Shown: positions 1-32,534 of the stretch, one piece after another
How positions within the stretch are numbered: the first letter of the stretch is position 1
Layout of the letters: every line of letters starts with the position of its first letter
DNA from: a virus
Taxonomy: Duplodnaviria; Heunggongvirae; Uroviricota; Caudoviricetes
Reading direction: 5' to 3' (one strand)
Virus record (IMG/VR): IMGVR_UViG_2531839144_000010
DNA: 33,724 bases
Made by a program: the position numbers and the translations under genes
Notes under the pieces: generated by a model
What the model saw: the letters and a program-made list of their open reading frames with translations, nothing else
Told to the model about the DNA's origin: nothing
The model's database searches: none

Positions 1-1011
1 TTATAACGTCACTCCGCCTTTTAGTGGATTCAGAGCGACGGCATTTTGCAGATAGTCAGGCGCAAGGTGCGCATAGGCCATCGTCTGCTGAATGCTCGCA
101 TGTCCCAGAATCTGTTGCAGTGCGATTATATTGCCCCCATTCATCATGAAATGGCTTGCGAATGTATGCCGCAGGATGTGGGTTGCCTGATTGGGTGGTA
201 TATCAGGTTTCACTCTGCGTAAAATCCCGCAAAATTTCTCATAATCAACTTTGAATAATTTGGCGCTGGCCTCCTCTTTAACTTTTTTCTCCAGTTCCTC
301 AGAAATCGGCACGGTTCGCTTTTTACCGTTTTTGGTTTTCAGGAAGGTAACCCTGCAATTTGTAATCTGTGCTGGTTTTAGCGTGGCAACTTCCGTCCAT
401 CTTCCTCCAGTGCTCAGACATAAAAGCGCGACAAGTAAGTCATCACCAGCCAAAACATTTAACAGTTTTTCGATTTCTGCTTTTTCCAGGAACGTCATTT
501 CAGGGTTGGCCTCCGCCAGTGGCGGCAGTCCGTGAATTGGGTGTTGCCCGGAAAATTCATCCAATTGAATTAATTTTGTGAACATGCCGGATAATCGGTA
601 CATGTCACGGTTTATCGTTGCGGCACTGATACCATCACGTAGTCGCATGGAACGATAATCCATCAAAGCCCTTTTGCTCATCCTGCTCACTGGTATATCA
701 CCTATGCCGCTGATGGTTTTGAGTAGATGATTAAACTCTTTTGTTCCATGCTCGTGGTTTTGCCCGTGATATTTCCACCAGATGTCCAGCAACTCACTCA
801 AAGTCCGGCGGTCTGCTCGCTGGCCTCCCCATTCTTTCTGACTGGCATTGGCGATTGTGTATCGCTCAAATGCTAGTGCTTCAGCTTTTCTTTCGAATTT
901 CCTGCGGATGCGTTTTCCGTCGCGACCGCGAGGTCTAATGTCCACTTCATAGCGACCATCATCGAGCTTCTTAATTGCCATAAGAAAGCCCTCCGGCGCT
1001 GTATTCACCAT
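1..1011 (-). CDS. int: Tyrosine integrase (P2 Int-like), 336 aa
   Basis: Minus-strand ORF whose stop codon is nt 1-3; C-terminal region HILRHTFASHFMMNGG...LGHASIQQTMAYAHLAPDY has the R/H...H...Y layout of tyrosine recombinases; sits beside the repressor as in P2. Confidence 0.85.
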   Translation of the reverse strand: MVNTAPEGFLMAIKKLDDGRYEVDIRPRGRDGKRIRRKFERKAEALAFERYTIANASQKEWGGQRADRRTLSELLDIWWKYHGQNHEHGTKEFNHLLKTISGIGDIPVSRMSKRALMDYRSMRLRDGISAATINRDMYRLSGMFTKLIQLDEFSGQHPIHGLPPLAEANPEMTFLEKAEIEKLLNVLAGDDLLVALLCLSTGGRWTEVATLKPAQITNCRVTFLKTKNGKKRTVPISEELEKKVKEEASAKLFKVDYEKFCGILRRVKPDIPPNQATHILRHTFASHFMMNGGNIIALQQILGHASIQQTMAYAHLAPDYLQNAVALNPLKGGVTL

Positions 1012-1050
1012 CTTGGTAGCAAATGGTGAAAATGTAATCTTTATATAGAG

Positions 1051-1344
1051 TTAGCCAATCCTTTTCGCGGAGTGGTTGGACTCTGTTGACTCTGGCCCAA
1101 TGTGCGCGAGAGCCGGTGCGATTTGTCCTGCGTCCGGCGCGGTTTTATCTGTCATAAGCCATAGAGCATATTTTTGGAATGTGGGATGCATAGTGATTTT
1201 TAGCAAAGCTGTGCCACCGGGTTCAAAGTTTCCTCCTTCATATTTTTTAAGTGTGCTTAGCGGTAACTCTATGATTTCACAGAATTTTGATTGGCTTAGC
1301 CCTTCAGCCTCACGCAAGGCCTTAATCTTTTCGCTTAATTTCAT
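1051..1344 (-). CDS. C: Immunity repressor (P2 C-like), 97 aa
   Basis: Small minus-strand ORF with an N-terminal HTH-like segment (LSQSKFCEIIELPLSTLKKYEGG), divergent from cox across an operator-containing intergenic region. Confidence 0.75.
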   Translation of the reverse strand: MKLSEKIKALREAEGLSQSKFCEIIELPLSTLKKYEGGNFEPGGTALLKITMHPTFQKYALWLMTDKTAPDAGQIAPALAHIGPESTESNHSAKRIG

Positions 1345-1465
1345 TTGACACGGTGCCTATATAGGGACTAAATTCCCTCAAAACTGGAACCTATATAGGT
1401 TCCATTGATTTGAGAATAAACCAGCGTCTAAACGGTTTTGAGTGGTTTAGAAAGGGCTGGATCCT
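1345..1465. promoter_or_regulatory. Divergent early promoter/operator region between C and cox
   Basis: TTGACA at 1345-1350 with an 18-nt spacer to TAAATT (1369-1374) reading rightward; two copies of the 10-bp palindrome CCTATATAGG at 1356-1365 and 1390-1399, the second extended to a perfect 18-bp palindrome GGAACCTATATAGGTTCC (1386-1403). Confidence 0.55.
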
Positions 1466-1753
1466 ATGAGGGTACCATATATGGACGCTGAAAATTATGT
1501 GATTCAGTATCCGCTTGATGCGGTTCATGTGGATAAATTTGCTGATTTATTAGGGAAGCCAAAGACAGCCGTCAGTGAAATGGTGAAGGCAAATAAATTA
1601 CCAATTATTGAATTGCGTGATCCTTGCAAACCGAAGGCTCGTGCCGGTGAAAAATGGGTTTTCATTCCTGAGTTTAATCGCGCTGTACGTGAGGCGTTTT
1701 ATAACCGACCGGTTGAACAGCGTGATGCATGGCTTTTGTGGATGGGGTTGTGA
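1466..1753 (+). CDS. cox: Cox-like excisionase / early-promoter repressor, 90-95 aa
   Basis: First rightward gene after the operator region; small basic protein ending ...RDAWLLWMGL, resembling the P2 Cox / 186 Apl family; alternative start at 1481. Confidence 0.65.
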   Translation: MRVPYMDAENYVIQYPLDAVHVDKFADLLGKPKTAVSEMVKANKLPIIELRDPCKPKARAGEKWVFIPEFNRAVREAFYNRPVEQRDAWLLWMGL

Positions 1754-1755
1754 TT

Positions 1756-1926
1756 ATGAATGAGCCTCGTTGTATTGCTCAGTTATTGCGTAACGAAAGC
1801 CCCAGGGCGATTGACTTCACCATCACCCACGGTAAGGGGCGTAAGGGAATCATTATCCGCACCAAAAAACAGAGTCCGTTAAAAAAGGCTCTGACCTTTC
1901 TGAAAAGCCGGAGGGTATGGAAATGA
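1756..1926 (+). CDS. Small early protein of unknown function (position of P2 orf78)
   Basis: ATG at 1756 lies 3 nt after the cox stop; 56 aa; function not recognisable. Confidence 0.35.
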   Translation: MNEPRCIAQLLRNESPRAIDFTITHGKGRKGIIIRTKKQSPLKKALTFLKSRRVWK

Positions 1927-2423
1927 CAGTGATGACGCTCAATCTCGTTGAAAAACAGCCAGCAACTATGCGCCGGATAATTGGTAAGCATCTGGCCGTC
2001 CCTCGCTGGCAGGAGACATGCGATTATTATAATCAGATGATGGAACGCGAACGGCTAACGGTTTGCTTTCATGCGCAGTTAAAACAGCGTCACGCAACGA
2101 TGCGTTTTGAAGAAATGAACGACGTCGAACGTGAACGACTGGTATGTGCAATTGATGAATTGCGCGGGGCATTCTCAAAACGCCGTCAGGTTGGCGCAAG
2201 TGAGTATGCATATATTAGTTTTTTAACAGTCAGTCAGCGTCGCACTTTATTTATGCACGCACGACTGACAGAAAAAGAATTTAACCAGCCATACTGGCGA
2301 ATTAATGAAGAGTCATGTTACTGGCGTGATGCTTTATTCCGTGCATTACGTGAATTATTCAGCCTGTTTGAGTATGCACCGACAATTCTGACGTCGGTAA
2401 AACCAGAGCAATATCTGCATTAA
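1923..2423 (+). CDS. B: Replication protein B-like, 166 aa from the ATG at 1923
   Basis: Position between cox and A; size matches P2 B when started at 1923; overlaps the upstream ORF stop by 4 nt. The track start at 1917 would give 168 aa. Confidence 0.6.
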   Translation: MTVMTLNLVEKQPATMRRIIGKHLAVPRWQETCDYYNQMMERERLTVCFHAQLKQRHATMRFEEMNDVERERLVCAIDELRGAFSKRRQVGASEYAYISFLTVSQRRTLFMHARLTEKEFNQPYWRINEESCYWRDALFRALRELFSLFEYAPTILTSVKPEQYLH

Positions 2424-2486
2424 GTAATTAACCAGAGTTTTTAACGCACTTAATTGTGCGGGGCTTCTTTTTGCCTGGAGAAAGTC

Positions 2487-2711
2487 ATGCATACAGTTTC
2501 TGAAAATCAGTGCGGTAAATACGCATTACTGCTGCAACAGGCCAGAACCGAAGCACAGGCCGACGCAGCGACGCGCTTTTCTTCTCATCTTGACGCTATG
2601 ATTCGCCACATCACAAAGGCGGAGTTATCCCGCGTAGAGATAGTCGAGCTGCTCAGTCAGGAGTCGGAAAAATTTCACAATATCGGATTGTCTCGCGGGG
2701 AGGTGCTTTGA
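2487..2711 (+). CDS. Small early protein (P2 orf80 position)
   Basis: ATG at 2487 preceded by GGAG 6 nt upstream; 74 aa; unknown function. Confidence 0.4.
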
Positions 2712-3013
2712 TGTCCTGTTCTCGTTCAGTTGTATTACTGAATAACGCCTTAAAAATCACCGTTATGAAAAATGGCGATCTATCTCTTATTCAACTTGGT
2801 CTTGATAAAGAAAAACGCGAAATAACTGAGTCTGTTATCGCGATTTATCAGAACGAATTAAATCTCCTGTCTGATGTGGTCAATTTACTTGTTAAACGCG
2901 CTGTATTTCACAAGCAAATCTCCTCCGTGGATGAACTGACGAAATTAACGACAGAAATTGCCAGCTATTGCGCTGATGAATTTAAAAAACTTAACGACAA
3001 AAGGAACTGGTAA
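2711..3013 (+). CDS. Small early protein (P2 orf81 position)
   Basis: ATG at 2711 overlaps the upstream stop by 1 nt (translational coupling); 100 aa; unknown function. Confidence 0.4.
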   Translation: MSCSRSVVLLNNALKITVMKNGDLSLIQLGLDKEKREITESVIAIYQNELNLLSDVVNLLVKRAVFHKQISSVDELTKLTTEIASYCADEFKKLNDKRNW

Positions 3014-3237
3014 TGCCGGACAACGTAGATTTTATTCAGGAACAACAGGCTGAATTACTGGAGCGTCAGATTAACGCGGCAAGGGTAAAACATTGCGGAG
3101 CTTCTGCGCTGGTTTGCGAAGAGTGTGACGCGCCAATACCTGCTGCCCGTCGTGCGGCTTATCCGTCAGCCACGCGTTGTGTTTCCTGCCAGTCAGTCTT
3201 TGAAGCAAAAAACAAACATTACCGGAGAACGGCATGA
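3013..3237 (+). CDS. TraR/DksA-family C4 zinc-finger protein (P2 orf82 position), 74 aa
   Basis: C-x2-C...C-x2-C motif (CEECDAP...RCVSCQ) in a 74-aa protein, typical of phage TraR-like proteins. Confidence 0.6.
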   Translation: MPDNVDFIQEQQAELLERQINAARVKHCGASALVCEECDAPIPAARRAAYPSATRCVSCQSVFEAKNKHYRRTA

Positions 3238-3509
3238 GTATTCGTATTGAAATTGGCGAACGTTATGTCGTTACCAGTGACAGCTTTCAGTTTATTCTCC
3301 ACGAGAAAAAGAGAGCGGAAAGCGGTAAAAACGCCGGTCAGGAATGGCTGGCGGTGGTTGGTTATTATCCGAAATTAAGCCAGCTCGTTTCCGGCCTGAT
3401 GCATCACGATATTCTGACCGGAAGCGCAAAGTCTTTTGCTGATTTAAACGCGCAGGTTGAGCAACTCAGCAGGCGTTGTTCAGAGGCTTTTGGCTCATAT
3501 GGCCGTTAA
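3234..3509 (+). CDS. Small early protein (P2 orf83 position)
   Basis: ORF overlapping the upstream stop by 4 nt; 91 aa; unknown function. Confidence 0.4.
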   Translation: MSIRIEIGERYVVTSDSFQFILHEKKRAESGKNAGQEWLAVVGYYPKLSQLVSGLMHHDILTGSAKSFADLNAQVEQLSRRCSEAFGSYGR

Positions 3510-5784
3510 AGCCTCCGGGCGTTTTGTCCCTCCTTCAGCATTTGTTGCAGGCACCGGTAAGGCGTTTACCGGTGCTTATGCATGGAACGCGCCACGCGAG
3601 GCCGTCGGGCGCGAAAGACCCCTTACACGTGACGAGATGCGTCAGGTGCAAGGTGTTTTATCCACGATTAACCGCCTGCCTTACTTTTTGCGCTCGCTGT
3701 TTACTTCACGCTATGACTACATCCGGCGCAATAAAAGCCCGGTACACGGGTTTTATTTCCTCACATCCACTTTTCAGCGTCGTTTATGGCCGCGCATTGA
3801 GCGTGTGAATCAGCGCCATGAAATGAACACCGACGCGTCGTTACTGTTTCTGGCAGAGCGTGACCACTATGCGCGCCTGCCGGGAATGAATGACAAGGAG
3901 CTGAAAAAGTTTGCTGCCCGTATCTCATCGCAGCTTTTCATGATGTATGGGGAACTCAGCGATGCCTGGGTGGATGCGCATGGCGAAAAAGAATCGCTGT
4001 TTACGGATGAGGCGCAGGCTCACCTCTATGGTCATGTTGCTGGCGCTGCACGTGCTTTCAATATTTCCCCTCTCTACTGGAAAAAATACCGTAAAGGGCA
4101 GATGACCACGAGGCAGGCATATTCTGCCATTGCCCGTCTGTTTAACGATGAGTGGTGGACTCATCAGCTTAAAGGCCAGCGTATGCGCTGGCATGAAGCG
4201 TTACTGATAGCTGTCGGGGAGGTCAATAAAGACCGTTCTCCTTATGCCAGTAAACACGCCATTCGTGATGTGCGTGCGCGCCGCCAGGCAAATCTGGAAT
4301 TTCTTAAATCGTGTGACCTTGAAAACAGGGAAACCGGCGAGCGCATCGACCTTATCAGTAAGGTGATGGGCAGTATTTCTAATCCTGAAATTCGCCGGAT
4401 GGAGCTGATGAACACCATTGCCGGTATTGAGCGTTACGCCGCCGCAGAGGGTGATGTGGGGATGTTTATCACGCTGACCGCGCCGTCAAAGTATCACCCG
4501 ACTCGTCAGGTCAGAAAAGGCGAAAGTAAAACCGTTCAGCTTAATCACGGCTGGAACGATGAGGCATTTAATCCAAAGGATGCGCAGCGTTATCTCTGCC
4601 GTATCTGGAGCCTGATGCGCACGGCATTCAAGGATAATGATTTACAGGTCTACGGTTTGCGAGTCGTCGAGCCACACCACGACGGAACGCCGCACTGGCA
4701 TATGATGCTTTTTTGTAATCCACGCCAGCGTAACCAGATTATCGAAATCATGCGTCGCTATGCGCTCAAAGAGGATGGCGACGAAAGAGGAGCCGCGCGA
4801 AACCGTTTTCAGGCAAAACACCTTAACCGGGGCGGTGCTGCGGGATATATCGCGAAATACATTTCAAAAAATATCGACGGCTATGCACTGGACGGTCAGC
4901 TCGATAACGATACCGGCAGACCGCTGAAAGATACTGCGGCGGCTGTTACCGCATGGGCGTCAACGTGGCGCATCCCGCAATTTAAAACGGTTGGCCTGCC
5001 GACAATGGGAGCTTACCGTGAGCTACGTAAATTGCCTCGCGGCGTCAGCATTGCTGATGAATTTGACGAACGCGTGGAGGCTGCACGCGCCGCCGCAGAC
5101 AGTGGCGATTTTGCGCTGTATATCAGCGCGCAGGGCGGGGCAAATGTCCCGCGCGATTGTCAGACTGTCAGGGTTGCCCGTAGTCCGTCGGATGAAGTTA
5201 ACGAGTACGAGGAAGAAGTCGAGAGAGTGGTCGGCATTTACGCGCCGCATCTCGGCGCGCGTCATATTCATATCACCAGAACGACGGACTGGCGCATTGT
5301 TCCGAAAGTGCCGGTCGTTGAGCCTTTGACTTTAAAAAGCGGCATCGCCGCGCCTCGGAGTCCTGTCAATAACTGTGGAAAACTCACCGGTGGTGATACT
5401 TCGTTACCGGCTCCCACACCTTCTGAGCACGCCGCAGCAGTGCTTAATCTGGTTGATGACGGTGTTATCGAATGGAATGACCCGGAGGTCGTGAGGACGC
5501 TCAGGGGGGCATTAAAACACGGCCTGAAAACACCAAATCGTCAGCAAAGAAACGGAAGCCCGTTAAAACCACATGAAATTGCACCGTCGGCCAGACTGAC
5601 CCGGTCGGAACGATTGCAGATTACCCGTATTCGCGTTGACCTCGCTCAGAACGGTATCAGGCCGCAGCGATGGGAGCTTGAGGCGCTGGCGTGTGGCGCG
5701 ACCGTAAATTATGACGGGAAAAAATTCACGTATCCGGTCGCTGATGAGTGGCCGGGATTCTCAACAGTAATGGAGTGGACATGA
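3499..5784 (+). CDS. A: Rolling-circle replication initiator A (HUH endonuclease), 761 aa
   Basis: HUH-like motif TPHWHMMLF and paired-tyrosine motif GYIAKYISKNIDGY; 761 aa from the ATG at 3499 matches P2 A length. The phage origin is expected inside this gene but I cannot place it. Confidence 0.85.
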   Translation: MAVKASGRFVPPSAFVAGTGKAFTGAYAWNAPREAVGRERPLTRDEMRQVQGVLSTINRLPYFLRSLFTSRYDYIRRNKSPVHGFYFLTSTFQRRLWPRIERVNQRHEMNTDASLLFLAERDHYARLPGMNDKELKKFAARISSQLFMMYGELSDAWVDAHGEKESLFTDEAQAHLYGHVAGAARAFNISPLYWKKYRKGQMTTRQAYSAIARLFNDEWWTHQLKGQRMRWHEALLIAVGEVNKDRSPYASKHAIRDVRARRQANLEFLKSCDLENRETGERIDLISKVMGSISNPEIRRMELMNTIAGIERYAAAEGDVGMFITLTAPSKYHPTRQVRKGESKTVQLNHGWNDEAFNPKDAQRYLCRIWSLMRTAFKDNDLQVYGLRVVEPHHDGTPHWHMMLFCNPRQRNQIIEIMRRYALKEDGDERGAARNRFQAKHLNRGGAAGYIAKYISKNIDGYALDGQLDNDTGRPLKDTAAAVTAWASTWRIPQFKTVGLPTMGAYRELRKLPRGVSIADEFDERVEAARAAADSGDFALYISAQGGANVPRDCQTVRVARSPSDEVNEYEEEVERVVGIYAPHLGARHIHITRTTDWRIVPKVPVVEPLTLKSGIAAPRSPVNNCGKLTGGDTSLPAPTPSEHAAAVLNLVDDGVIEWNDPEVVRTLRGALKHGLKTPNRQQRNGSPLKPHEIAPSARLTRSERLQITRIRVDLAQNGIRPQRWELEALACGATVNYDGKKFTYPVADEWPGFSTVMEWT

Positions 5785-6110
5785 TGGCAAAAATTCACGA
5801 GGTAAAGCTGCACGCAAAATATTTCGACCTTGTACTGGAAGGAAAGAAACGCGCAGAGTTTCGGAAAAAAGATCGTAATTATGAGCGCGGGGACACGTTG
5901 ATTTTGCATGAATGGGTGCAGGGTGTGTTTACGGGGCGAAAGGTTGAAGCCCAGATAACAGATGTTACTGACCTGTCAGACTGGCTGGAAGATTATGTCT
6001 TGCTGCACAGAATACTAGGTGAGATACTGCCGCTGACTGTCAAGCTGGCAGTATCCTCCACATTTTTTATAAATCTAAGGCGAAGAACGGTGGCAATATA
6101 TTTGCTTTAA
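5781..6110 (+). CDS. ASCH/DUF3850-like small protein (P2 orf91 position)
   Basis: ATG at 5781/5784 overlaps the A stop; N-terminus MAKIHEVKLHAKYFDLVLEGKKRAEFRKKDRNYERGDTLILHEW resembles the DUF3850/ASCH family by eye. Confidence 0.5.
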   Translation: MMAKIHEVKLHAKYFDLVLEGKKRAEFRKKDRNYERGDTLILHEWVQGVFTGRKVEAQITDVTDLSDWLEDYVLLHRILGEILPLTVKLAVSSTFFINLRRRTVAIYLL

Positions 6111-6148
6111 ATTGTAAATAAGCAAATTATTCTAAGCCACAAATAATA

Positions 6149-6910
6149 TCAATTGAGTATCGATTTTCGTTCGAATATAACCATAACGCCAAGCGTCAAA
6201 TATAAGTCATCTATATGTGATTCGTATTCATATTGGTCAGCATCAGGAGATAGTAAATGCTCTGCTGCTGTAAAAACATCAATTGTAACAGATATATCAT
6301 CTGGAATTTCTTTATTTAATTCATATATGTATTTTTTATATTTGTTTTTTAATTTCCTTATCATGTCTTCCTTATGGTGGATTGTAGTGCAGTAATTTTT
6401 TTTAGTTGAATCATTGTATGAATGGAATAAACAGTTTAATGCTAGTTCAAGGCTTGAACTCCCCGTAGGACCTGTGTGTTTAAAGTATTCAAGATTTCTT
6501 CTTATGTCAGAAAATAAAAGTTTTTTACTGGGGTTGTTTCCTTTAACTTCTATTGCACATATAGGAGTCTCGAAAAATGATCTACTGTCCAATATGGCAA
6601 TATCGATTCTGCCTGGTCTTTTTGTATTTGCATTTTTTCTGATAATGTGTCTTGAGAATATATTGTTGGGGTCATGCCGTTTCGATAAAGGGACTGTTGC
6701 ATTAATGAATTTATTTGTATGGTATTCAAATATGATCTTGTAATCACCATGATGAAAAGATGTTATTTTAATCAAGGATTGACCTATAGATACGGTAGCT
6801 ACATATTCAGTGTTTATTTTTCCACCGGAACTGAAATCCATTAAATAAGTAGCTTTGGCTGACTTTTGCATTCCAGCTTTTACGGCTTTCAAAATCTCCA
6901 TGTTATTCAT
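6149..6910 (-). CDS. Tin-like cargo protein, 253 aa, with a possible PD-(D/E)xK-like motif
   Basis: AT-rich minus-strand ORF at the position of P2 tin, next to old; segment GRIDIAILD...ICAIEVKG has D...E-x-K spacing reminiscent of restriction-endonuclease-fold proteins. Assignment is positional; the motif is unverified. Confidence 0.5.
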   Translation of the reverse strand: MNNMEILKAVKAGMQKSAKATYLMDFSSGGKINTEYVATVSIGQSLIKITSFHHGDYKIIFEYHTNKFINATVPLSKRHDPNNIFSRHIIRKNANTKRPGRIDIAILDSRSFFETPICAIEVKGNNPSKKLLFSDIRRNLEYFKHTGPTGSSSLELALNCLFHSYNDSTKKNYCTTIHHKEDMIRKLKNKYKKYIYELNKEIPDDISVTIDVFTAAEHLLSPDADQYEYESHIDDLYLTLGVMVIFERKSILN

Positions 6911-7093
6911 ATCAACTCCTTTTGTATCATAATATTTTCATCATTGTAAATCGTAATGATTGATTTGTTTGTGTGCTTAGGTTTTTTGATTAGCGAATTT
7001 ATAACACATTCTGATTTTGAGATCACCATCTTTGGGAACAGCACAGCCTATCACTATTGGTTTAGTACTGCGCTGTAATCGTATCAGATTAAA

Positions 7094-8854
7094 TTAAATC
7101 CATTTAATGAAATCTTCCATTTCATCATATTTTTTTATTACTGCTCTAACATCTTTGCTTTCATCACATAAACAATCTAAAAGACTATCCCATTCAGTTT
7201 GTTTTTTACCAAATCCATAAACAGCTTCTATATCACCGGATTTCCATATATAGATTCCATTATCTTTCAATTTTTGATGGATTTCATGTATATGTTTTTG
7301 TGTTTTTTCATGATTACATATTTTGATGAAGTCTTTGCTTGAAATGCTTTTGAATGACTCAAAAGTAGTGACTTTTGTATTTAAATTAAGCTCGCCTGAG
7401 TTGATTGATTCAGTCAAAGCAGTCAAGAGATTATCACATTCAGTACTAAGTAAGTCTTTATGCTCTGTTAATAGGATGTTTGATAAGAAATCACAATCAG
7501 CTAGAATTCTTGTTCTTATACCAATGGCATTGATGATTTGTGACATCTTAAATAAACTACCCTTACCGTCAACGGCAACAATGCAGATTTTACTTGGGTT
7601 GAGTTCATGTCCGTTAATTTTTTTATAAAGTGCATATAGGACGTTTGTCTCTGTTTTTCCTTCAACAAGCAAAACTTCTTCTGAAAATAAGAAATATGAT
7701 GAATTTGATAGTGTGAATGCTGAGTGCAATTGCGGTGATGAAGACTTATATAATTCTTCGATTTTTTCAGATATGGTCTTCCTTGCTATGGTTCCATTAG
7801 AATCCTTACAAACCTGAATCGCATTTGCTGCGTGCTTTGCAGAAAGCATACTGGCTGAGTGAGTTGATATTATAACCTGATACCCTGATTCACTTAATGT
7901 GACAAGTGATTCTCTGACAGAATTAATAGCTGAAGGGTGTAAATATAACTCAGGTTCATCAATGAAAATTAAAGTATTTGATTTTTTTGATTCGCTGTTT
8001 TCTTTTTTTATTTCGGCCAGGTATTGAATTAATGCCATTTGAATGGAACGTTGTGTTCCGTGACCAAATCGGCTGATATCTCTCATTACTGGTTCATCTT
8101 CCCGAGACTCAAAAACTTTCAGGGTTCCGGATTTAAATATTTCATCTAATGTCGGTGTGGGAAAGTGTAACTTTACACTTACGTCAGGAAAAAATTGGTT
8201 TACTTTTTTATTTACACCCGAGTCTATTTTATTAAGGCTTTCTAATCTGTTCTCACCGTTGTGAGAAAGATATTTACCTATTTCTGATATATTTTTTGAG
8301 AATTTCTCTTCGTGCTCTTGCTTTATTTCAGAAACAATTGCGGAAAGTATCTTTCCTATTGTGGTCGTATTTTTACATTTTGTTGAGTCTTCGACGGCGT
8401 CAGACATTGCAGGGATATGAATTGGTTCCGGAAATATATTGGAAATTGCACCATCTATGCCGCCAGGGTTTTTCTTCCACGTGGTGCCATCATATACATC
8501 CAGACTTTTTTTGACTTTTCCTGTTTCCTTATTAAATTCCTGTCTTCTTGCAAAGGTAAGAGTCCCGTCAATTATAAACGGAGCTATTTTTTGTTGATTC
8601 TCTTCTGTTAACAAAGACAGAGTATCATCTGTTATACCTTGAATAACGCCTTCAACGGATACGGGGTGTGTAGGATCGTACACATCTGATTCTGAAATCA
8701 AAGAGCCATCTAACAGCCACTTAATTGCTAAGATGATATTTGATTTTCCTGCGTTATTATAACCAACTAAAGCAGTAAAGGGGCGCAAAATAGCCGATGT
8801 TGCCTTACAAGAACGAAAGTTGCTAATTGAAACTGAAGCAAGACGTACAGTCAT
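7094..8854 (-). CDS. old: OLD-family nuclease (ABC-type ATPase + TOPRIM), 586 aa
   Basis: Walker A GYNNAGKS near the N-terminus, Walker B-like LIFIDEPELYLH, H-loop-like ISTHS, then a C-terminal TOPRIM-like region (LLVEGKTE ... IVAVDGKG); size and position match P2 old; AT-rich relative to flanks. Confidence 0.85.
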   Translation of the reverse strand: MTVRLASVSISNFRSCKATSAILRPFTALVGYNNAGKSNIILAIKWLLDGSLISESDVYDPTHPVSVEGVIQGITDDTLSLLTEENQQKIAPFIIDGTLTFARRQEFNKETGKVKKSLDVYDGTTWKKNPGGIDGAISNIFPEPIHIPAMSDAVEDSTKCKNTTTIGKILSAIVSEIKQEHEEKFSKNISEIGKYLSHNGENRLESLNKIDSGVNKKVNQFFPDVSVKLHFPTPTLDEIFKSGTLKVFESREDEPVMRDISRFGHGTQRSIQMALIQYLAEIKKENSESKKSNTLIFIDEPELYLHPSAINSVRESLVTLSESGYQVIISTHSASMLSAKHAANAIQVCKDSNGTIARKTISEKIEELYKSSSPQLHSAFTLSNSSYFLFSEEVLLVEGKTETNVLYALYKKINGHELNPSKICIVAVDGKGSLFKMSQIINAIGIRTRILADCDFLSNILLTEHKDLLSTECDNLLTALTESINSGELNLNTKVTTFESFKSISSKDFIKICNHEKTQKHIHEIHQKLKDNGIYIWKSGDIEAVYGFGKKQTEWDSLLDCLCDESKDVRAVIKKYDEMEDFIKWI

Positions 8855-9048
8855 TATTTTTCCTTAAATGTGCTATTTGTATGCAATGAGTTCATACGAA
8901 ACGTTTTTTTACATTTTATACTCGTTGCATTCAAGGGTGCATGAGATTGCATTAAGGGAAACTGTGATATGGCTTGGCTTTTGACTAGAAAAACTGATGG
9001 TTCATTAGTTTTATTAAGGTGCATCAAAACCGCCTCATGAAGCGGGCG

Positions 9049-9067
9049 GGCGAGGCGGGGAAAGCAC
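9049..9067. other. cos site (19-nt cohesive-end sequence GGCGAGGCGGGGAAAGCAC)
   Basis: Exact match to the P2 cohesive-end sequence as I recall it, located between old and Q where P2 cos lies. Confidence 0.8.
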
Positions 9068-9207
9068 TGCGCGCTGGCGGTGGTGCTGATTTTATTTTTT
9101 CAGCGTCTCAGCGCGTCGTGATGGCGCTTAGTCTGCCCGTTGAGGTGTTGGTGTGTCTGCGGGGTGTTTTGTGCGGTGGTGAGCGTGTAAGGGCGTGATG
9201 ACGGGGT

Positions 9208-9232
9208 GTAAAAAAGCCGCCCGCAGGCGGCG
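9208..9232 (-). terminator. Rho-independent terminator of the P-Q operon
   Basis: GCCGCC-CGCA-GGCGGC hairpin (9216-9231) followed on the minus strand by a T6 run, immediately downstream of the Q stop. Confidence 0.65.
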
Positions 9233-9236
9233 ATGT

Positions 9237-10271
9237 TCAGCCGTTGTCAGTCTCCAGTGAGTAGTTTTTAAAGCGGATGATCTCCTGACCGAGCCAGCCG
9301 TTTATTTCCCGAATTCTGTCCTGTAGCGGGATAAGCTCATTGCGGACAAAGACCTTTGCCACTTTTTCAATATCACCCAGCGACCCGACGTTCTCCGGCT
9401 TGCCGCCCATCAACTGAAAGGGGATACGGTGCGCGTCCAGCAGGTCAGCGGCGCTGGCTTTTTTGATATTAAAAAAATCGTCCTTCGTTGCCACTTCACT
9501 GAGCGGGATAATTTTAATGCCGTCAGCTTTCCCCTGCGGGGCATAGAGAAACAGGTTTTTAAAGTTGTTGCGGCCTTTCGACTTCACCATGTTTTCGCGA
9601 AGCATTTCGATATCGTTGCGATCCTGCACGGCATCGGTGACGTACATGATGTATCCGGCATGTGCGCCGTTTTCGTAATACTTGCGGCGGAACAGCGTGG
9701 CCGACTCATTCAGCCAGGCAGAGTTAAGGGCGCTGAGATATTCCGGCAGGCCGTACAACTCCTGATTAATATCCGGCTCCAGCAGGTGAAACACGGAGCC
9801 GGGCGTGAAGGCTGTCGGCTCGTTGAAGGACGGCACCCACCAGTAAACATCCTCCTCCACGCCACGGCGGGTATATTTTGCCGGTGAGGTTTCCAGTCTG
9901 ATGACCTTACCGGTGGTGCTGTAACGCTTTTCCAGAAACGCATTACCGAACACCAGAAAATCCAGCACAAAACGGCTGAAATCCTGCTGGGAAAGCCACG
10001 GGTGCGGGATAAACGTTGAAGCCAGAATATTACGTTTGACGTAAATCGGTGAGCTGTGATGCACGGCAGCACGCAGGCTTTTTGCCAGACCGGTAAAGCT
10101 GACCGGCGGCTCATACCATCTGCCGTTACTGATGCACTCGACGTAATCCAGAATGTCACGGCGGTCGAGTACCGGCACCGGCTCGCCAAAGGTGAATGCT
10201 TCCATTTTCGGGGCGCTGGCGGTGATTGTTTTTGCCGCAGGTCGCGGTGTTTTCCCTTTTTTCTTGCTCAT
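9237..10271 (-). CDS. Q: Portal protein, 344 aa
   Basis: Size and position match P2 Q; 1-nt overlap with the upstream P stop. Confidence 0.85.
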   Translation of the reverse strand: MSKKKGKTPRPAAKTITASAPKMEAFTFGEPVPVLDRRDILDYVECISNGRWYEPPVSFTGLAKSLRAAVHHSSPIYVKRNILASTFIPHPWLSQQDFSRFVLDFLVFGNAFLEKRYSTTGKVIRLETSPAKYTRRGVEEDVYWWVPSFNEPTAFTPGSVFHLLEPDINQELYGLPEYLSALNSAWLNESATLFRRKYYENGAHAGYIMYVTDAVQDRNDIEMLRENMVKSKGRNNFKNLFLYAPQGKADGIKIIPLSEVATKDDFFNIKKASAADLLDAHRIPFQLMGGKPENVGSLGDIEKVAKVFVRNELIPLQDRIREINGWLGQEIIRFKNYSLETDNG

Positions 10272-17972: not shown

Positions 17973-18417
17973 GTTTAAGCGTTTTGAAGACCGGCTGACC
18001 GGACTGATTGAGTCGCTGTCACCGTCAGGGCGTCGACGACTGAGTGCCGAACTGGCGAAACGTCTGCGTCAGAGTCAGCAGCGTCGGGTGATGGCACAGA
18101 AAGCCCCGGACGGCACACCCTACGCGCCACGCCAGCAGCAGAGCGCCAGAAAAAAGACCGGTCGTGTTAAGCGAAAAATGTTTGCGAAACTTATCACCAG
18201 TCGCTTTTTGCATATCCGCGCCAGCCCGGAACAGGCATCAATGGAATTTTACGGCGGGAAGTCACCGAAAATCGCCAGTGTGCATCAGTTCGGTCTGTCG
18301 GAAGAAAACCGGAAAGACGGTAAGAAAATTGATTATCCGGCGCGTCCTCTGCTCGGCTTTACCGGTGAGGATGTGCAGATGATTGAAGAGATTATTCTGG
18401 CTCACCTCGACCGTTAG
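17965..18417 (+). CDS. S: Tail completion protein S, 150 aa
   Basis: Size and position match P2 S; overlaps the R stop. Confidence 0.75.
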   Translation: MNEFKRFEDRLTGLIESLSPSGRRRLSAELAKRLRQSQQRRVMAQKAPDGTPYAPRQQQSARKKTGRVKRKMFAKLITSRFLHIRASPEQASMEFYGGKSPKIASVHQFGLSEENRKDGKKIDYPARPLLGFTGEDVQMIEEIILAHLDR

Positions 18418-18449
18418 TTGTGCCATTCCTGACACCTCATCGTCACATT

Positions 18450-18471
18450 GCCGCCGGTATGACCCGGCGGC
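18450..18471 (+). terminator. GC-rich stem-loop between S and V (possible operon boundary)
   Basis: GCCGCCGG-TATGAC-CCGGCGGC, an 8-bp perfect stem; no U-tract follows, so terminator function is uncertain. Confidence 0.25.
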
Positions 18472-18483
18472 ATCCTTCCCGTT

Positions 18484-20909: not shown

Positions 20910-23228
20910 ATGAGCACAAAATTCAGAACCGTTATCACCACTGCCGGTGCAGCAAAGCTGGCAGCGGCAACCGCACCGGGAGGGCGGAAGGTCAACATTA
21001 CCACGATGGCCGTCGGGGATGGCGGTGGTAAATTGCCTGTCCCGGATGCCGGACAGACCGGGCTTATCCACGAAGTCTGGCGACATACGCTGAACAAAAT
21101 CAGCCAGGACAAACGAAACAGTAATTATATTATCGCAGAGCTGGTTATTCCGCCGGAGGTGGGCGGTTTCTGGATGCGTGAGCTTGGCCTGTACGATGAT
21201 GCGGGAACGTTAATTGCCGTGGCGAACATGGCCGAAAGTTATAAGCCAGCTCTTGCCGAAGGCTCAGGGCGTTCGCAGACCTGTCGCATGGTCATCATCG
21301 TCAGCAGTGTGGCCTCGGTGGAGCTGACCATTGACACCACAACGGTGATGGCGACACAGGATTACGTTGATGACAAAATTGCAGAGCACGAACAGTCACG
21401 ACGTCACCCGGACGCCTCGCTGACCGCAAAAGGTTTTACTCAGTTAAGCAGTGCGACCAACAGCACGTCTGAAACACTGGCCGCAACGCCGAAAGCGGTA
21501 AAGGCCGCCTATGACCTTGCTAACGGGAAATATACCGCACAGGACGCTACCACAGCGCGAAAAGGTCTTGTCCAGCTCAGTAGTGCCACCAACAGCACGT
21601 CTGAAACGCTTGCGGCAACGCCAAAGGCGGTTAAGACAGCGTATGACCTTGCTAACGGGAAATACACTGCACAGGACGCCACTACAGCGCGAAAAGGTCT
21701 TGTCCAGCTCAGTAGCGCCACCAACAGCGATTCTGAAACGCTTGCGGCAACACCAAAGGCGGTTAAGACAGCGTATGACCTTGCTAACGGGAAATACACT
21801 GCACAGGATGCCACCACGGCGCGAAAAGGTCTTGTCCAGCTCAGTAGCGCCACCAACAGTGATTCTGAAACCCTCGCGGCAACGCCAAAAGCAGTGAAGT
21901 CTGCCTATGACAATGCTGAAAAACGTCTTCAGAAAGATCAGAACGGTGCGGATATTCCGGGAAAGGATACCTTCACGAAAAATATCGGTGCCTGTCGTGC
22001 TTATAGCGGCGCTTTGAGCACTGAAGCCGGAAACTGGACAACCGCTCAGTTTATTGAATGGCTGGATTCCCGTGGTGCATTTAATCATCCGTACTGGATG
22101 TGCAAAGGCTCCTGGTCATATGCAAATAACAAAATCATTACGGATACCGGATGTGGTGATATCCACCTGGCTGGTTGTGTCGTCGAGGTCATGGGAACTA
22201 AATCTGCAATCACTATCCGAGTGACCACGCCGACAACATCAAGTGGTGGCGGTACAACCAGCGCGCAATTCACTTACATTAATCATGGGGACGGCTACTC
22301 CCCCGGCTGGCGTCGTGACTGGAATCGTCAGGGCGACTCAATGACCGGAACGATTAATCAGGATGGCGGAAGCCAGAATGCCTATATGTCTACGGCCTTA
22401 TGTTCAGGCACCAGAGGCGGCAAAAAATATCTCAGAAAGTTTCGTGGTGGAGAAGGAGACACTATCTGGCATGAAACAGTACAGGGCGGGGTAGTTCGCT
22501 GGGCGACTGGTAATACTGATGCTCAGGAAGAATTATCACTCAGCTCCGCTTATGGTCTCCGTTCAAGAGGTGAGATTACATCAAGCAGTGCTAATGGTCT
22601 GCGCATTGCTTATGGCAATTATGGATTCTTTATCAGGAATGATGGCAGCAGCACTTATTTTATGTTGACTAAATCAGGTGACAGATTAGGCACTTATAAT
22701 AATTTAAGACCACTGATTATAAATGATGCCACGGGTGCTGTATCAATGGGGCATGGCCTGAGTGTTACTGGTGAAATTGCCTCAAGTACCAAAGTACGTG
22801 CCGGTAGCGGGAAAAAATTCACGGTCAGCAGCAGTAATACATCCACGAAGGAAGCCGCATTCAATTTGTGGGGAAACTCAAGTCGTCCTGTGGTGGCTGA
22901 ATTAGGTGATGATGCAGGCTGGCATTTTTACAGTCAGAGAAATACAGATAACAGCATCACTTTTGCTGTTAACGGGCAGGTATCACCATCTAACTATAGT
23001 AATTTTGATTCACGCTATGTCCGGGATATCCGGCTTGGTGGTGCTGCCACATACAAACCTGCGAACAATGGCATGACATGGACACATCAGGCACCGTCCG
23101 GGTGTGTATATTCCGGCATTATTGTTCAGGATACCGGCTCAAACTCTGCCGATAACATTGGTGGCGTATATTACAGACCGATTCAGAAATACATTAACGG
23201 GATATGGTATAACGTGGCGCAGGTATAA
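20910..23228 (+). CDS. H: Tail fibre protein H, 772 aa, with internal tandem repeats
   Basis: Conserved N-terminal baseplate-attachment region, then about 3.7 copies of a 44-aa fibre repeat, then a variable C-terminal receptor-binding part. Confidence 0.85.
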   Translation: MSTKFRTVITTAGAAKLAAATAPGGRKVNITTMAVGDGGGKLPVPDAGQTGLIHEVWRHTLNKISQDKRNSNYIIAELVIPPEVGGFWMRELGLYDDAGTLIAVANMAESYKPALAEGSGRSQTCRMVIIVSSVASVELTIDTTTVMATQDYVDDKIAEHEQSRRHPDASLTAKGFTQLSSATNSTSETLAATPKAVKAAYDLANGKYTAQDATTARKGLVQLSSATNSTSETLAATPKAVKTAYDLANGKYTAQDATTARKGLVQLSSATNSDSETLAATPKAVKTAYDLANGKYTAQDATTARKGLVQLSSATNSDSETLAATPKAVKSAYDNAEKRLQKDQNGADIPGKDTFTKNIGACRAYSGALSTEAGNWTTAQFIEWLDSRGAFNHPYWMCKGSWSYANNKIITDTGCGDIHLAGCVVEVMGTKSAITIRVTTPTTSSGGGTTSAQFTYINHGDGYSPGWRRDWNRQGDSMTGTINQDGGSQNAYMSTALCSGTRGGKKYLRKFRGGEGDTIWHETVQGGVVRWATGNTDAQEELSLSSAYGLRSRGEITSSSANGLRIAYGNYGFFIRNDGSSTYFMLTKSGDRLGTYNNLRPLIINDATGAVSMGHGLSVTGEIASSTKVRAGSGKKFTVSSSNTSTKEAAFNLWGNSSRPVVAELGDDAGWHFYSQRNTDNSITFAVNGQVSPSNYSNFDSRYVRDIRLGGAATYKPANNGMTWTHQAPSGCVYSGIIVQDTGSNSADNIGGVYYRPIQKYINGIWYNVAQV
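21429..21915 (+). repeat. In-frame 132-bp tandem repeat array inside H (units start at 21429, 21561, 21693, 21825)
   Basis: Direct repeats read from the sequence; each encodes KGLVQLSSATNS(T/D)SETLAATPKAVK(T/A)AYDLANGKYTAQDATTAR. Confidence 0.9.
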
Positions 23229-23231
23229 TTT

Positions 23232-23759
23232 ATGCAGCATTTGATAAATATAACGGCAGGTAATCCAAAAACGGTTGAACAATATCAATTGACAAAGGAC
23301 TTTGATGTTGTCTGGTTTTTTTCAGAAGATGGTAAGAACTGGTACGAAGAACAAAAGTATTTTGCTGATGACACGATAAAAATAGCGTACGACAAAGATA
23401 ATATCATCCGCTATGTGGAAAAGGATGTGACAGCTATCAGACCGGATGGATTAAGTGTGGTTGAAGTGGCGGATATTACTGCTAACCGACGGGCGGATAT
23501 TTCAGGGGGCTGGATGTTTAAGGACGGCAAAGTGATTAAACGCATTTATACGACAGAGGAATTACAGCAGCAGGCAGAAATTCGGAAAGCCAGACTTCTT
23601 GCAGATGCTGAATCCGTGATTTTGCCGCTGGAGCGCGCGGTCAGACTGAACATGGCAACAGGTGAGGAGCGTAGCCGACTGGAAGCATGGGAACGCTACA
23701 GCGTTCTGGTCAGTCGTGTGGATCCTGCAAATCCTGAATGGCCGGAAATGCCGCAATAA
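23232..23759 (+). CDS. G: Tail fibre assembly chaperone G, 175 aa
   Basis: Size and position match P2 G; directly follows H. Confidence 0.8.
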
Positions 23760-24123
23760 GTTGTATGAGCTCTGGTGTGAGCTTACATATCTATGGCACA
23801 GAGTAAAGCCTAATCTGACAGTTCGCTCTGTGCCAGAAACAGACGTCACTTATATATTTCTTTATTAATCAATGAGGAAAGATTCAATTCTCTATAATGG
23901 AGGTTGCGTCCACTGTTTTCTCTAAGCAGACCAAGTTCCCTTAACGAAAAATTTAGTGTCAGAAAATAATATTGACAAAGAGGCAATGTTATATAGTATT
24001 AGTTTGATAACTAAAAATATAAGCCTGATTATCTCAAGCTTATATAGGTGATAAAGTTTCTAACTTAATTTGATTATAGAAGATACATTTCTTAATTATG
24101 ACGCATTGATAATGGATTCAACT

Positions 24124-25149
24124 TCATTCAATAATGTCTGGTAGAACATTAAATCCAGTTGGTCGAAAAAAGGATAATCTTTGCTGATGAGAAACTAAAT
24201 CTATCTTCACAATGTGATGATGGTTTTTTTTGATTTTTCTAGAGTACAATGAGTAAAAAAGATTTTCTGTGTTAATTTCCACAATGATTCCAGACATATC
24301 TAAGTCATAGCATTTTGCTAACGCTTTCAATTTTGGTGATATTTTGCTCTCTTTAAACTTTTCATTATATTCCGGTTGAAAATATCTTATCAAAGCGGCT
24401 TCGATTATATTAATGGCTTGATTTTTGTTTGGGTGATTTTTTAATGCAAACTTAAATCGCTTGTCATCGCTATCCGTATCATCAATTAATCCAGACCTCC
24501 CATCTAGAGATGAGAATACTTGTTCATGCTCAAAGGCATACATAAAAAGCATGATCTCTTGATCTGGCTTGTTATAAAGCGTTTGCGCCAATATTTTTTG
24601 TAATTTTGAATGACTCCTTAAACGTTCAACTGCATTCCTGCTACCATTTTTACCTACGGCTTGTCCAATATAAAGAACTTCATATGAGGACAGATCTGAA
24701 TAGTAACCTAATTTGCTTGAATATAAGGTGGCAATGAAAGATGCAGAGATGTAAGTTACCTCCTCCCCTTCATTATTTATACTAATAACTTCTCTGAATG
24801 GATAGTTACATATTACATTAGTTGCATCGTCTTCTAATATCCAGTTGTATTCAAAATGGAACTTGCTTTCTTTACCATCTATTTTGTACCCTATCTCTCC
24901 TGAGAGAATGTTTTTCTCATGATTAATTGTATTATCAATAAAATAAAAGCTTGGGCGAGCGCATATAAAGTATATATGGCATTTTGAAAGTTGTTTTTCT
25001 TGTTCTAAATTAATTTTTGCATCAGACGTTAGTTGCTGAGCAGTAAGCATCGCTGTAAAACTATTTAAGTATCCAAAAGCAAATTCGTGTATGAATTTTC
25101 TTTTCACTCGAAATATCCTCACTAGAAATGAATAATATTGGTTTTTCAT
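24124..25149 (-). CDS. AT-rich cargo protein at the Z/fun position, 341 aa, unknown function
   Basis: Sole ORF in the AT-rich 1.7-kb island between G and FI, opposite in orientation to the late operons; contains G-Y-Y (148-150), Y-I-G (160-162), R176 and E207/E209 in GIY-YIG-like spacing. Start codon uncertain (weak ribosome-binding site; next Met at residue 34). Confidence 0.6.
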   Translation of the reverse strand: MKNQYYSFLVRIFRVKRKFIHEFAFGYLNSFTAMLTAQQLTSDAKINLEQEKQLSKCHIYFICARPSFYFIDNTINHEKNILSGEIGYKIDGKESKFHFEYNWILEDDATNVICNYPFREVISINNEGEEVTYISASFIATLYSSKLGYYSDLSSYEVLYIGQAVGKNGSRNAVERLRSHSKLQKILAQTLYNKPDQEIMLFMYAFEHEQVFSSLDGRSGLIDDTDSDDKRFKFALKNHPNKNQAINIIEAALIRYFQPEYNEKFKESKISPKLKALAKCYDLDMSGIIVEINTENLFYSLYSRKIKKNHHHIVKIDLVSHQQRLSFFRPTGFNVLPDIIE

Positions 25150-32132: not shown

Positions 32133-32534
32133 TTATTTCCCTGTGTAAAGACGTGTTTGGGATGAAAGTAACACTTGCCCCTGTTTAGGCGTCAACGAAC
32201 CTATTTCATTGCATGTTTTTAATGGTTCGAAAAAAACATAACCGATGGATTTATATTGATTAACTATGCTTATTTCTTTGATTTTTTTGAGATATGAAGC
32301 AGGCGTGTCTTTTGTCCAGACTGGTGTGCATACACCGGTCATAATCAGGTTGCTGTAGGCGTCAGGGGCGATTTCTTTGCCAGGAAGTACCACCGTAAGC
32401 GAGTTGTTTTTATTCGTGATTTCTAGGGGTTGCCATGGTTTAAGCTGCTTTTGAAGGGTTTTAATATCATTCGCGTTTGCGTTGAGCGAAATTATTAAGG
32501 TGGCTATTGCCATCACTGATTTAAGAGTTGCCAT
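32133..32534 (-). CDS. Secreted small protein of unknown function, 133 aa, signal peptide, two Cys
   Basis: N-terminal signal peptide MATLKSVMAIATLIISLNANA with an AxA cleavage motif; AT-rich codon usage unlike both phage backbone and fieF; bracketed by two similar hairpins. Confidence 0.6.
   Translation of the reverse strand: MATLKSVMAIATLIISLNANANDIKTLQKQLKPWQPLEITNKNNSLTVVLPGKEIAPDAYSNLIMTGVCTPVWTKDTPASYLKKIKEISIVNQYKSIGYVFFEPLKTCNEIGSLTPKQGQVLLSSQTRLYTGK

Follow-up and report, generated by a model that had tools for sequence, protein, structure and literature searches.

Which enzyme does the long gene in the low-GC stretch between gene A and cos of this P2-like prophage encode, and would it still serve its carrier in defence? 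The window analysed (the whole 33,724-nt stretch of DNA, IMG/VR record IMGVR_UViG_2531839144_000010) holds at 7094..8854, on the minus strand, an ATG-started open reading frame of 586 aa, whose 586 stop-free codons would occur by chance with a probability of about 1e-20 at the local base composition. Compared over 100% of the bacteriophage P2 old gene it shows 97.0% nucleotide identity, and the two proteins are 99.0% identical, differing at 6 of 586 residues, all conservatively (S18A, A114V, L388F, K447R, I481T and S490N). The nucleotide differences comprise 46 synonymous and 7 non-synonymous changes, and dN/dS is 0.03 at a dS of 0.14, i.e. old is under very strong purifying selection.

Profile searches agree with this identification. 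The PADLOC Old profile matched at 1e-214, with aa 3-586 aligned to positions 2-578 of 578, and PHROG 4747 matched the full length at 2.5e-218. An ABC-type ATPase followed by a C-terminal TOPRIM domain, the architecture proposed in the original prediction, was recovered in Pfam as AAA_15 (3e-28) and AAA_21 (9e-20) together with the OLD-like TOPRIM family PF20469 (aa 389-455, E=2.3e-17); NCBIfam has no Old-specific model and all of its matches fell far below cut-off. By identity and profile coverage alike, the gene reads as P2 old proper, more than an OLD-family relative. The OLD family was founded on P2 old, which was described in 1968-70 and had its target and structure resolved in 2025-26, and what we find in the window is an already known gene, a textbook case. 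Taken together, ORF 7094..8854 is very probably a functional allele of P2 old, fusing the ABC ATPase to TOPRIM as in class 1 OLD proteins, carried by a complete P2-like prophage and co-transcribed with tin, its function being read across from the 99%-identical protein.

Functional residues were inspected along the whole chain (all coordinates that follow are on the minus strand). The five motif strings on which the original prediction was built are found at aa 31 (GYNNAGKS), 297 (FIDEPELYLH), 330 (STHS), 396 (LVEGKTE) and 427 (AVDGKG), each the same in P2 Old. In the ATPase domain, the Walker A/P-loop G31-S38 (8741..8764), with K37, aligns to GPNGAGKT of Thermus scotoductus (Ts) OLD (6p74), and the Walker B and D-loop segment F297-H306 (7937..7966; D299, E300, Y304 and H306) and the H-loop S330-S333 (7856..7867; H332) both match P2; the ATPase residues K37, D299, E300, H306 and H332 are all present. 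Inside the ATPase, the dimerisation or 'lock' insert (core L170-F231, 8162..8347) keeps the body residues L170, I177, F185, I192, L196, L229 and F231 and the clasp, in which F221 and F222 stand against Y32 and Y304, exactly as in P2. Cryo-EM and mutants showed that these lock residues hold the autoinhibited P2 OLD tetramer (bioRxiv 10.64898/2026.07.10.737580).

The TOPRIM core spans aa 389-455 (7490..7690), delimited by PF20469 and conserved residues. It opens with the Glu motif L396-E402 (7649..7669; E398, K400 and E402) and ends on the DxD motif D453-C-D455 within 'ILADCDF' (7490..7498), and the second metal site with its lysine follows at D541-K550 (7205..7234; D541, E543 and K550). The ligands of metal A (E398, D453 and D455, which form metal A of P2 OLD) and metal B (E402, D541 and E543) are complete, as is K550. 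Of the two strings read earlier as TOPRIM motifs, LVEGKTE is thus the genuine Glu motif, but AVDGKG (A427-G432, 7559..7576) is not a catalytic one: P2 retains it and Ts OLD has VVDcgGK at the aligned place, D429 is non-catalytic and lies outside the tested catalytic residues, and the true DxD is D453/D455. Mutants of P2 OLD include D299A and H306A, both tested, and K37A, which abolished recBC killing. H332A blocked the ATP-dependent second tRNA cut and E402A abolished tRNA cleavage (PMC12445682). Every residue that experiments have shown to matter in P2 OLD is intact in the window protein, and alignment to the P2 reference, the check suggested at the outset, left no ATPase or TOPRIM catalytic residue missing.

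Assignment to class 1, the stand-alone OLD proteins, also withstood scrutiny: the product is a single 586-aa chain, and its neighbours are tin and cos with the portal gene Q. The first class 1 OLD crystal structure, that of Ts OLD (PDB 6P74), is likewise a stand-alone ABC ATPase plus TOPRIM (E=4e-10) and aligns at Walker A, Walker B/D-loop, H-loop and the LLVEG Glu motif, a distant similarity only. The Ts enzyme is dimeric and cleaved DNA in vitro; the P2 enzyme forms a tetramer and cuts tRNA. GajA of Gabija, a class 2 OLD (PDB 8SM3, 8J4T), shares the two-domain architecture, the TOPRIM catalytic residues and the tetrameric state, the P2 OLD tetramer resembling apo GajA, and its activation is likewise tied to RecBCD antagonists (PMC12407980). 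Unlike Old, GajA cooperates with the UvrD-like helicase GajB encoded next to it and nicks DNA at a specific site. Class 2 membership was rejected, there being no helicase ORF in the island or its flanks and GajA profile matches being weak (about 1e-31, against 1e-214 for PADLOC Old). Class 3, the Retron-Eco8 effector, was discarded as well (NF038234 at 59 bits against a cut-off of 250, no reverse transcriptase and no Rfam retron RNA). PARIS (AriA ATPase and AriB TOPRIM) resembles Old in that an ABC ATPase controls a TOPRIM tRNase, in its presence in P2/P4 hotspots and in the rescue of infection by phage tRNAs; its ATPase and TOPRIM are separate proteins triggered by the anti-restriction DNA mimic Ocr, unlike the one fused chain of the window, and both gene context and scores speak against PARIS membership.

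The surroundings of old reproduce the P2 order A, orf91, tin, old, cos, Q. Gene A, the replication endonuclease (3499..5784, plus strand, 98.0% aa identity to P2 gpA), and gene Q, the portal (9237..10271, minus strand, 98.3% to P2 gpQ), are the conserved left and right hotspot flanks. Between them, the GC content of 6000-9000 is 0.338 against 0.526 for the remainder of the window, bearing out the original proposal that old and tin form a two-gene AT-rich cargo in the A-to-cos interval, encoded on the other strand from A. Its right boundary is cos, a 19-nt cohesive-end sequence (9049..9067, GGCGAGGCGGGGAAAGCAC on the plus strand) that is the same as P2 cosR. At its left edge lies orf91, an ASCH/DUF3850 gene (5781..6110, plus strand) that converges on tin and has an internal 233-nt deletion, the same one as in P2; PGAP marks its equivalent as C-terminally incomplete. 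The second gene of the transcript (6149..6910, minus strand, 253 aa), described beforehand as Tin-like, is Tin itself: it matched the PADLOC Tin profile at 8e-99 and shares 86% of its amino acids with P2 Tin. It is separated from old by a spacer of 183 nt (6911..7093, minus strand), which is 174 nt in P2 and owes its length to a 9-nt insertion common to NCTC11476. Relative to the P2 reference (AAD03309.1; AF063097 31620-33380), the locus retains the 586-aa length, the tin-old-cos position, the strand logic and the upstream region with mapped starts, and differs in the 9-nt insertion and in a Tin partner just 86% identical.

In P2, old and tin are co-transcribed according to the P2 annotation, which places the transcript starts at 33424/33426. 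The equivalent sites in the window are 8900 and 8898, within a promoter region at 8898..8934 (minus strand), from which we read a putative −35 TTGAAT (8934..8929) and a putative −10 TAAAAA (8911..8906) separated by 17 nt. Two of the 37 positions of this segment differ from P2, as do 8 of 213 from cosR to the old start, and the Shine-Dalgarno AAGGA (8861..8865, minus strand), 6 nt upstream of the old ATG, is unchanged. A general search of 5700-9300 for sigma-70 promoters and terminators returned fewer promoter-like sites than shuffled sequence, the old-tin promoter not among them, and found no convincing intrinsic terminator after tin, the sole nearby match (6198..6184) lying inside the tin 3′ end. 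Since Rfam detected no family and ARAGORN no tRNA within the window, it has no retron RNA, regulatory RNA family or rescue tRNA.

The window is a complete P2-like prophage adjoining E. coli fieF. The phage that carries old is heteroimmune with respect to P2 (int, C and cox at 43-52% aa identity), and every other essential P2 gene is present and full-length at 94-100% aa identity. In place of fun(Z) it has an orphan cargo gene, at 24124..25149. Among complete E. coli genomes the closest relative is VL7S7 (99.1%), where a 1-nt deletion splits tin beside an intact old. The six Old substitutions recur in two other E. coli prophages, VL7S7 and NCTC11476, and they define a second Old allele lineage of these two and the window. 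The A-Q flanks were found in 2152 of 5426 complete E. coli genomes and the old-tin cargo in just 17 of them, old and tin together in 16. E. coli fEC.1 carries in the same A-Q slot an old product (WP_072778436.1) likewise of 586 aa and 80% identical, keeping the catalytic and lock residues with L229I as sole change; it differs in having neither tin nor orf91 beside it, and its divergence is concentrated in aa 450-550. Such variable cargo between gene A and gene Q, next to cos, fits the gpA-gpQ region, a published defence hotspot of P2-like phages.

How the protein would work can be proposed from these data and the P2 literature: gene identity, functional-residue integrity, purifying selection, genomic context and regulatory-region conservation were observed here, and oligomeric state, triggers, tRNA target and phenotype are carried over from work on the 99%-identical protein. 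A single transcript covering old and tin would start at the promoter immediately inside cos and run counter to the early and replication genes. Its product, nearly identical to the P2 protein studied, is expected to form an autoinhibited homotetramer in which the ABC-ATPase domains and the helical dimerisation insert keep two TOPRIM domains within a cleft that is too tight to admit the substrate. Loss or inhibition of RecBCD (lambda Gam, T7 gp5.9 or recB/recC mutants), with the attendant accumulation of aberrant DNA, would activate it, and ssDNA hairpins at a firing lambda-type origin may be a second trigger. Once open, the TOPRIM cleft would use ATP hydrolysis to cut the anticodon stem of tRNA-Thr(UGU) at two staggered positions, a few other tRNAs being cut less extensively; translation would stop, the infected cell would die or arrest, and lambda-like phages would leave no progeny, an abortive infection. 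Lambda exclusion and recBC killing by P2 Old are on record in the literature for P2. Cutting of the tRNA-Thr(UGU) anticodon stem by P2 OLD comes from two recent reports (PMC12445682; bioRxiv 10.64898/2026.07.10.737580). For tetramer-to-dimer activation and the origin-hairpin trigger the source is a 2026 preprint, and its authors ask for further evidence (bioRxiv 10.64898/2026.07.10.737580).

This scenario departs from the DNA nuclease chemistry implied by the original prediction, which is outdated in the light of the two 2025-26 studies describing P2 OLD as an ATP-powered tRNA endonuclease. The view of P2 OLD as exclusively a tRNase is itself recent, and the older picture, in which the gene is P2 old but kills through a 5′-3′ exonuclease or nickase that degrades the DNA of phage or host as soon as RecBCD is disabled, has some backing: MBP-Old was earlier reported as a 5′-3′ dsDNA exonuclease, DNA cleavage in vitro is known for both Ts OLD and class 2 OLDs, a class 1 OLD of Vibrio cholerae is described as DNA-nicking, and two-metal TOPRIM chemistry fits DNA and RNA alike. 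Nevertheless we hold it to be very unlikely. Purified P2 OLD cleaved neither plasmid nor lambda nor linear dsDNA in two independent recent studies (PMC12445682; bioRxiv 10.64898/2026.07.10.737580), and cleavage-resistant phage tRNA-Thr(UGU) partly rescued toxicity or defence (PMC12445682; bioRxiv 10.64898/2026.07.10.737580). Furthermore, genomic and plasmid DNA stayed intact in cells with activated OLD, and the ssDNA activity of the P2 enzyme was merely weak and ATP-independent (PMC12445682).

Two other readings concern the state of the locus or its wiring. Decay is frequent among prophage cargo genes, orf91 is internally deleted and the adjacent tin is split in VL7S7, all of which would suit an old gene that has fallen silent or is decaying inside a cryptic prophage, its defence lost. 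Such a fate is highly improbable here, given an intact ORF with a dN/dS of 0.03, conservation of catalytic and lock residues, ribosome-binding site and promoter region, full-length retention of the essential P2 genes and an intact tin in this prophage. An obligate partnership of Old and Tin in a two-component system, Old needing Tin, is scarcely credible at all: co-transcription in P2, their cloning together as 'old-tin' in the hotspot study and their joint occurrence in 16 of 17 cargo-bearing genomes point that way, but Old expressed from a plasmid on its own both killed cells in a recBC/Gam-dependent manner and cleaved tRNA, and the purified protein is active by itself. Moreover, Old and Tin are counted as distinct systems, the former directed against lambda and the latter against T-even phages, fEC.1 has its old without tin and VL7S7 pairs an intact old with a frameshifted tin. 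A functional, autonomous P2 old allele remains our preferred reading.

The two genes of the cargo have diverged very differently. In the lineage of the window, VL7S7 and NCTC11476, Old is almost invariant and Tin is mosaic, with protein-level change about 17 times faster than that of Old at the same synonymous distance from P2, and neither Pfam nor NCBIfam offers a family for it. Positive selection on Tin was considered and rejected, its overall omega of 0.39-0.49 not being above 1, and the uneven divergence along tin speaks for recombination within the gene, involving three allele types; because omega is below 1 and divergence uneven, we report the Tin result solely as elevated protein-level change. 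One could speculate that L388F and K447R, which flank the TOPRIM core, and I481T and S490N in the C-terminal region shift the tRNA preference of Old or its sensitivity to inhibitors such as Oad2, alongside an arms race of Tin with T-even gp32. We consider this improbable; if true, the exclusion spectrum of the window prophage would be unlike that of reference P2.

For annotation, RefSeq labels the gene merely 'ATP-dependent nuclease' and the PHROGs family is listed under 'unknown function', and the assignment given here corrects both. With old long established, the record carries little weight as a discovery. It shows old-tin to be a rare cargo (17 of 2152 flank-bearing complete E. coli genomes) and adds modest natural-variation data on P2 OLD, namely a second Old allele lineage that purifying selection constrains very strongly and the occurrence of old with or without tin.

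The old gene spans 7094..8854 on the minus strand and opens with an ATG encoding 586 aa, exactly as the original prediction placed it; at the local composition (A 0.37, T 0.28, G 0.17, C 0.17) the probability of 586 sense codons in a row is about 1e-20. Pfam assigns the product ABC-type ATPase domains (AAA_15, 3e-28; AAA_21, 9e-20) and an OLD-like TOPRIM (PF20469, aa 389-455, 2e-17). The PADLOC Old profile covers the protein end to end (1e-214), GajA, AriA and other ATPase-TOPRIM profiles falling far below it at 1e-33 or weaker, and PHROG 4747 matches at 2.5e-218. Of the solved structures, Thermus scotoductus OLD (6p74, 4e-10) and several GajA chains come closest in sequence. Among 50,697 phage records, bacteriophage P2 was the sole megablast match; the alignment, at 97.0% identity, covers the whole gene and falls on the CDS annotated as old. 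The 53 nucleotide differences, 46 of them synonymous, give dN/dS 0.03 at dS 0.14 (Nei-Gojobori), and only six of 586 residues change (S18A, A114V, L388F, K447R, I481T and S490N). The window gene is P2 old itself in a natural allelic form, that is, an already known, textbook gene; the analysis confirms the observation and supports the interpretation first given to it.

Functional residues were checked against positions with experiments on P2 OLD from three studies. Schiltz et al. 2020 (PMC7049728) tested K37, D299, H306 and H332 in the ATPase, and E398/D453/D455 (metal A), E402/D541/E543 (metal B) and K550 in the TOPRIM domain; by cryo-EM, the catalytic pocket comprises D455, D453, D541, E402, E398 and K400 (preprint 10.64898/2026.07.10.737580). 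All five motif strings quoted in the original prediction are present, at aa 31, 297, 330, 396 and 427: FIDEPELYLH contains the Walker B and D-loop, STHS the H-loop histidine, and LVEGKTE is the catalytic Glu motif (E398, K400, E402). The exception is AVDGKG (D429), proposed as a TOPRIM motif but absent from the catalytic residues of both studies; the DxD is D453-C-D455 in ILADCDF. The preprint also defines a tetramer interface (L170, I177, F185, I192, L196, L229, F231) and a clasp of F221/F222 against Y32/Y304, and Govande et al. 2025 (PMC12445682) studied the mutants H332A and E402A. The window Old keeps every residue of all three lists, including the full ATPase and TOPRIM catalytic sets, and its six substitutions coincide with none.

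The same six substitutions occur in prophages of E. coli VL7S7 and NCTC11476 and therefore mark a second natural allele lineage of old. A divergent Old lies in the A-Q slot of E. coli fEC.1 (NZ_CP085638.1, 2476-4236; 586 aa, 80% aa identity), with all catalytic and lock residues kept except L229I and its differences clustering in aa 450-550, C-terminal to the TOPRIM core. Polarised against it as outgroup, residues 18, 447 and 490 look ancestral in P2 and residue 388 in the window.

Class 1 OLD genes stand alone, class 2 (GajA) adjoins a UvrD-like helicase and class 3 lies within retron cassettes, while in PARIS the ATPase and TOPRIM domains are split. Here old has tin on one side and cos/Q on the other; no helicase or reverse transcriptase was found among the window ORFs or Pfam domains, and no retron RNA in the window. 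The retron-Eco8 effector model was tried, and Old scores 59 bits against its equivalog cut-off of 250. The stand-alone context, these absences and the sub-threshold retron score therefore place the gene in class 1, as predicted, and P2 Old is the archetype of that class.

For the mechanism we rely on studies of P2 OLD, 99% identical to the window protein, which by analogy would act in the same way. P2 OLD was discovered through lethality in recB/recC hosts and lambda exclusion, and lambda escape mutants pointed to Gam (10.64898/2026.07.10.737580). Older work described a 5'-3' DNA exonuclease activity, and this view is the main rival to a tRNA-cleaving enzyme. The newer data now weigh against it. 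With Gam or T7 gp5.9, OLD lowers CFU 10^5-fold (P22 Abc2 is without effect), translation halts on activation while DNA remains intact, and no dsDNA cleavage by OLD was detected (Govande et al. 2025, PMC12445682). In that study the purified enzyme cuts tRNA-Thr(UGU) 3' of C in a paired CNG motif on both anticodon-stem strands, leaving 5'-phosphate and 3'-OH ends; the site 1 cut is ATP-free, the site 2 cut requires ATP hydrolysis (H332), and E402A abolishes cleavage.

On the tRNA nuclease reading, the preprint (10.64898/2026.07.10.737580) adds Gly-UCC, fMet, Val-UAC and Pro-UGG as targets and an autoinhibited tetramer, resolved at 3.1 Å, in which the 13.5 Å TOPRIM cleft leaves no room for a substrate. 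Interface mutants that dissociate to dimers are hyperactive and toxic, although the dissociation model needs more evidence according to its own authors. The same work reports that OLD binds the chromosome terminus when cells are deficient in recB and the lambda ori during infection, and that SbcCD and lambda Exo/Beta modulate activation; it also identifies a phage inhibitor, Oad2.

The AT-rich island expected around old is sharply bounded (GC 0.338 for 6000-9000 against 0.526 elsewhere in the window), and its Tin-like partner proved to be Tin (6149..6910, minus strand; PADLOC Tin 8e-99, PHROG 9821, 86% aa identity to P2 Tin). In the P2 record the two genes share one annotated mRNA. Old and Tin are functionally independent exclusion systems: Old targets lambda and Tin the T-even phages, whose ssDNA-binding protein it poisons, and Old alone suffices in plasmid and in vitro assays (including PMC7049728 and PMC12445682). 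In fEC.1 old occupies the slot without tin or orf91, and in VL7S7 (NZ_CM177009.1), the closest relative at 99.1% nt identity, tin has lost one nucleotide (tin position 508) and is annotated as two hypothetical proteins, beside an intact old. The 86% identity of Tin contrasts with 94-100% for almost all other shared P2 proteins; dS is 0.16 and omega 0.47, against 0.14 and 0.03 for old, a dN about 17 times higher. The window tin is patchy, NCTC11476-like at roughly codons 50-150 and P2-like in its C-terminal third, a pattern that indicates recombination within the gene between three or more types of allele. At the island edge, the ASCH/DUF3850 gene orf91 (5781..6110, plus strand), like that of P2, lacks an internal 233-nt segment of the full-length 147-aa NCTC11476 version; its C-terminal 30-odd residues come from different sequence there, and PGAP flags its equivalents as incomplete pseudogenes.

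This locus has been described as the gpA-gpQ hotspot of P2-like phages, for which Rousset et al. 2022 counted 1,650 gene arrangements over 18,150 occurrences. Complete E. coli genomes numbering 5,426 were searched: 2,152 have its flanks, and only 17 the old-tin cargo. Separately, several RefSeq E. coli chromosomes (for example NZ_CM177009.1, NZ_AP027595.1, NZ_CP085638.1, NZ_CP054371.1) start exactly at the P2 gene A ATG, window 5700 corresponding in them to record position ~2202; this looks like an artefact of start-fixing tools, which would have read the 'replication endonuclease' of a prophage as a gene for replicating the chromosome.

Searching all 42 annotated P2 proteins by tblastn showed a complete P2-like prophage, with head, tail, lysis and replication genes all full-length at 94-100% aa identity except H and G, and with the P2 gene order A (3499..5784, plus), orf91, tin, old, cos, Q (9237..10271, minus), P. 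The 19-nt cos (9049..9067) is identical to P2 cosR, and the 213 nt from there to the old start codon differ at eight positions. The mapped P2 old-tin mRNA starts, 33424/33426, are equivalent to window 8900/8898, upstream of which TTGAAT and TAAAAA, with a 17-nt spacer, are putative promoter hexamers; a ribosome-binding site, AAGGA, lies 6 nt 5' of the ATG. On its right the prophage borders E. coli fieF, which identifies the host as E. coli, and the same junction is present in 44 complete genomes. The integrase (1..1011, minus), HTH repressor (1051..1344, minus) and cox (1466..1753, plus) share 52%, 43% and 43% aa identity with their P2 counterparts Int, C and Cox, which makes the prophage heteroimmune to P2, with a different attachment site, adjoining fieF. 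Tail-fibre H (region 20910..23759) has 772 aa against 669 in P2, matching it only at residues 1-251, its C-terminus replaced, and the assembly protein G in that region is 74% identical, which indicates a probable swap of the receptor-binding module. P2 orf30 is missing between S and V (~18417-18484). Between ogr and fieF, the prophage has a 133-aa ORF (32133..32534, minus; PHROG 3807, 1e-56, unknown function) that P2 lacks; it has no Pfam domain and is a 'hypothetical protein' in E. coli genomes.

The P2 fun(Z) is also replaced, by an uncharacterised gene in a second low-GC island (23850-25450, GC 0.30-0.40) between G and the sheath gene FI. Its sole ORF (24124..25149, minus, 341 aa) has no Pfam or PADLOC match, the 50,697 phage records match only its flanks, and its family is PHROG 15714 (unknown function), whose profile starts at residue 34. 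Six of 5,426 complete E. coli genomes carry it, annotated 'hypothetical protein', and NCTC11476 and 05-3629 have both this gene and the window's old-tin lineage. We regard this ORF as a candidate for an uncharacterised exclusion gene. The mildly interesting points are side findings: a mosaic, fast-changing Tin, an internally deleted orf91 and an orphan gene in the fun(Z) slot.
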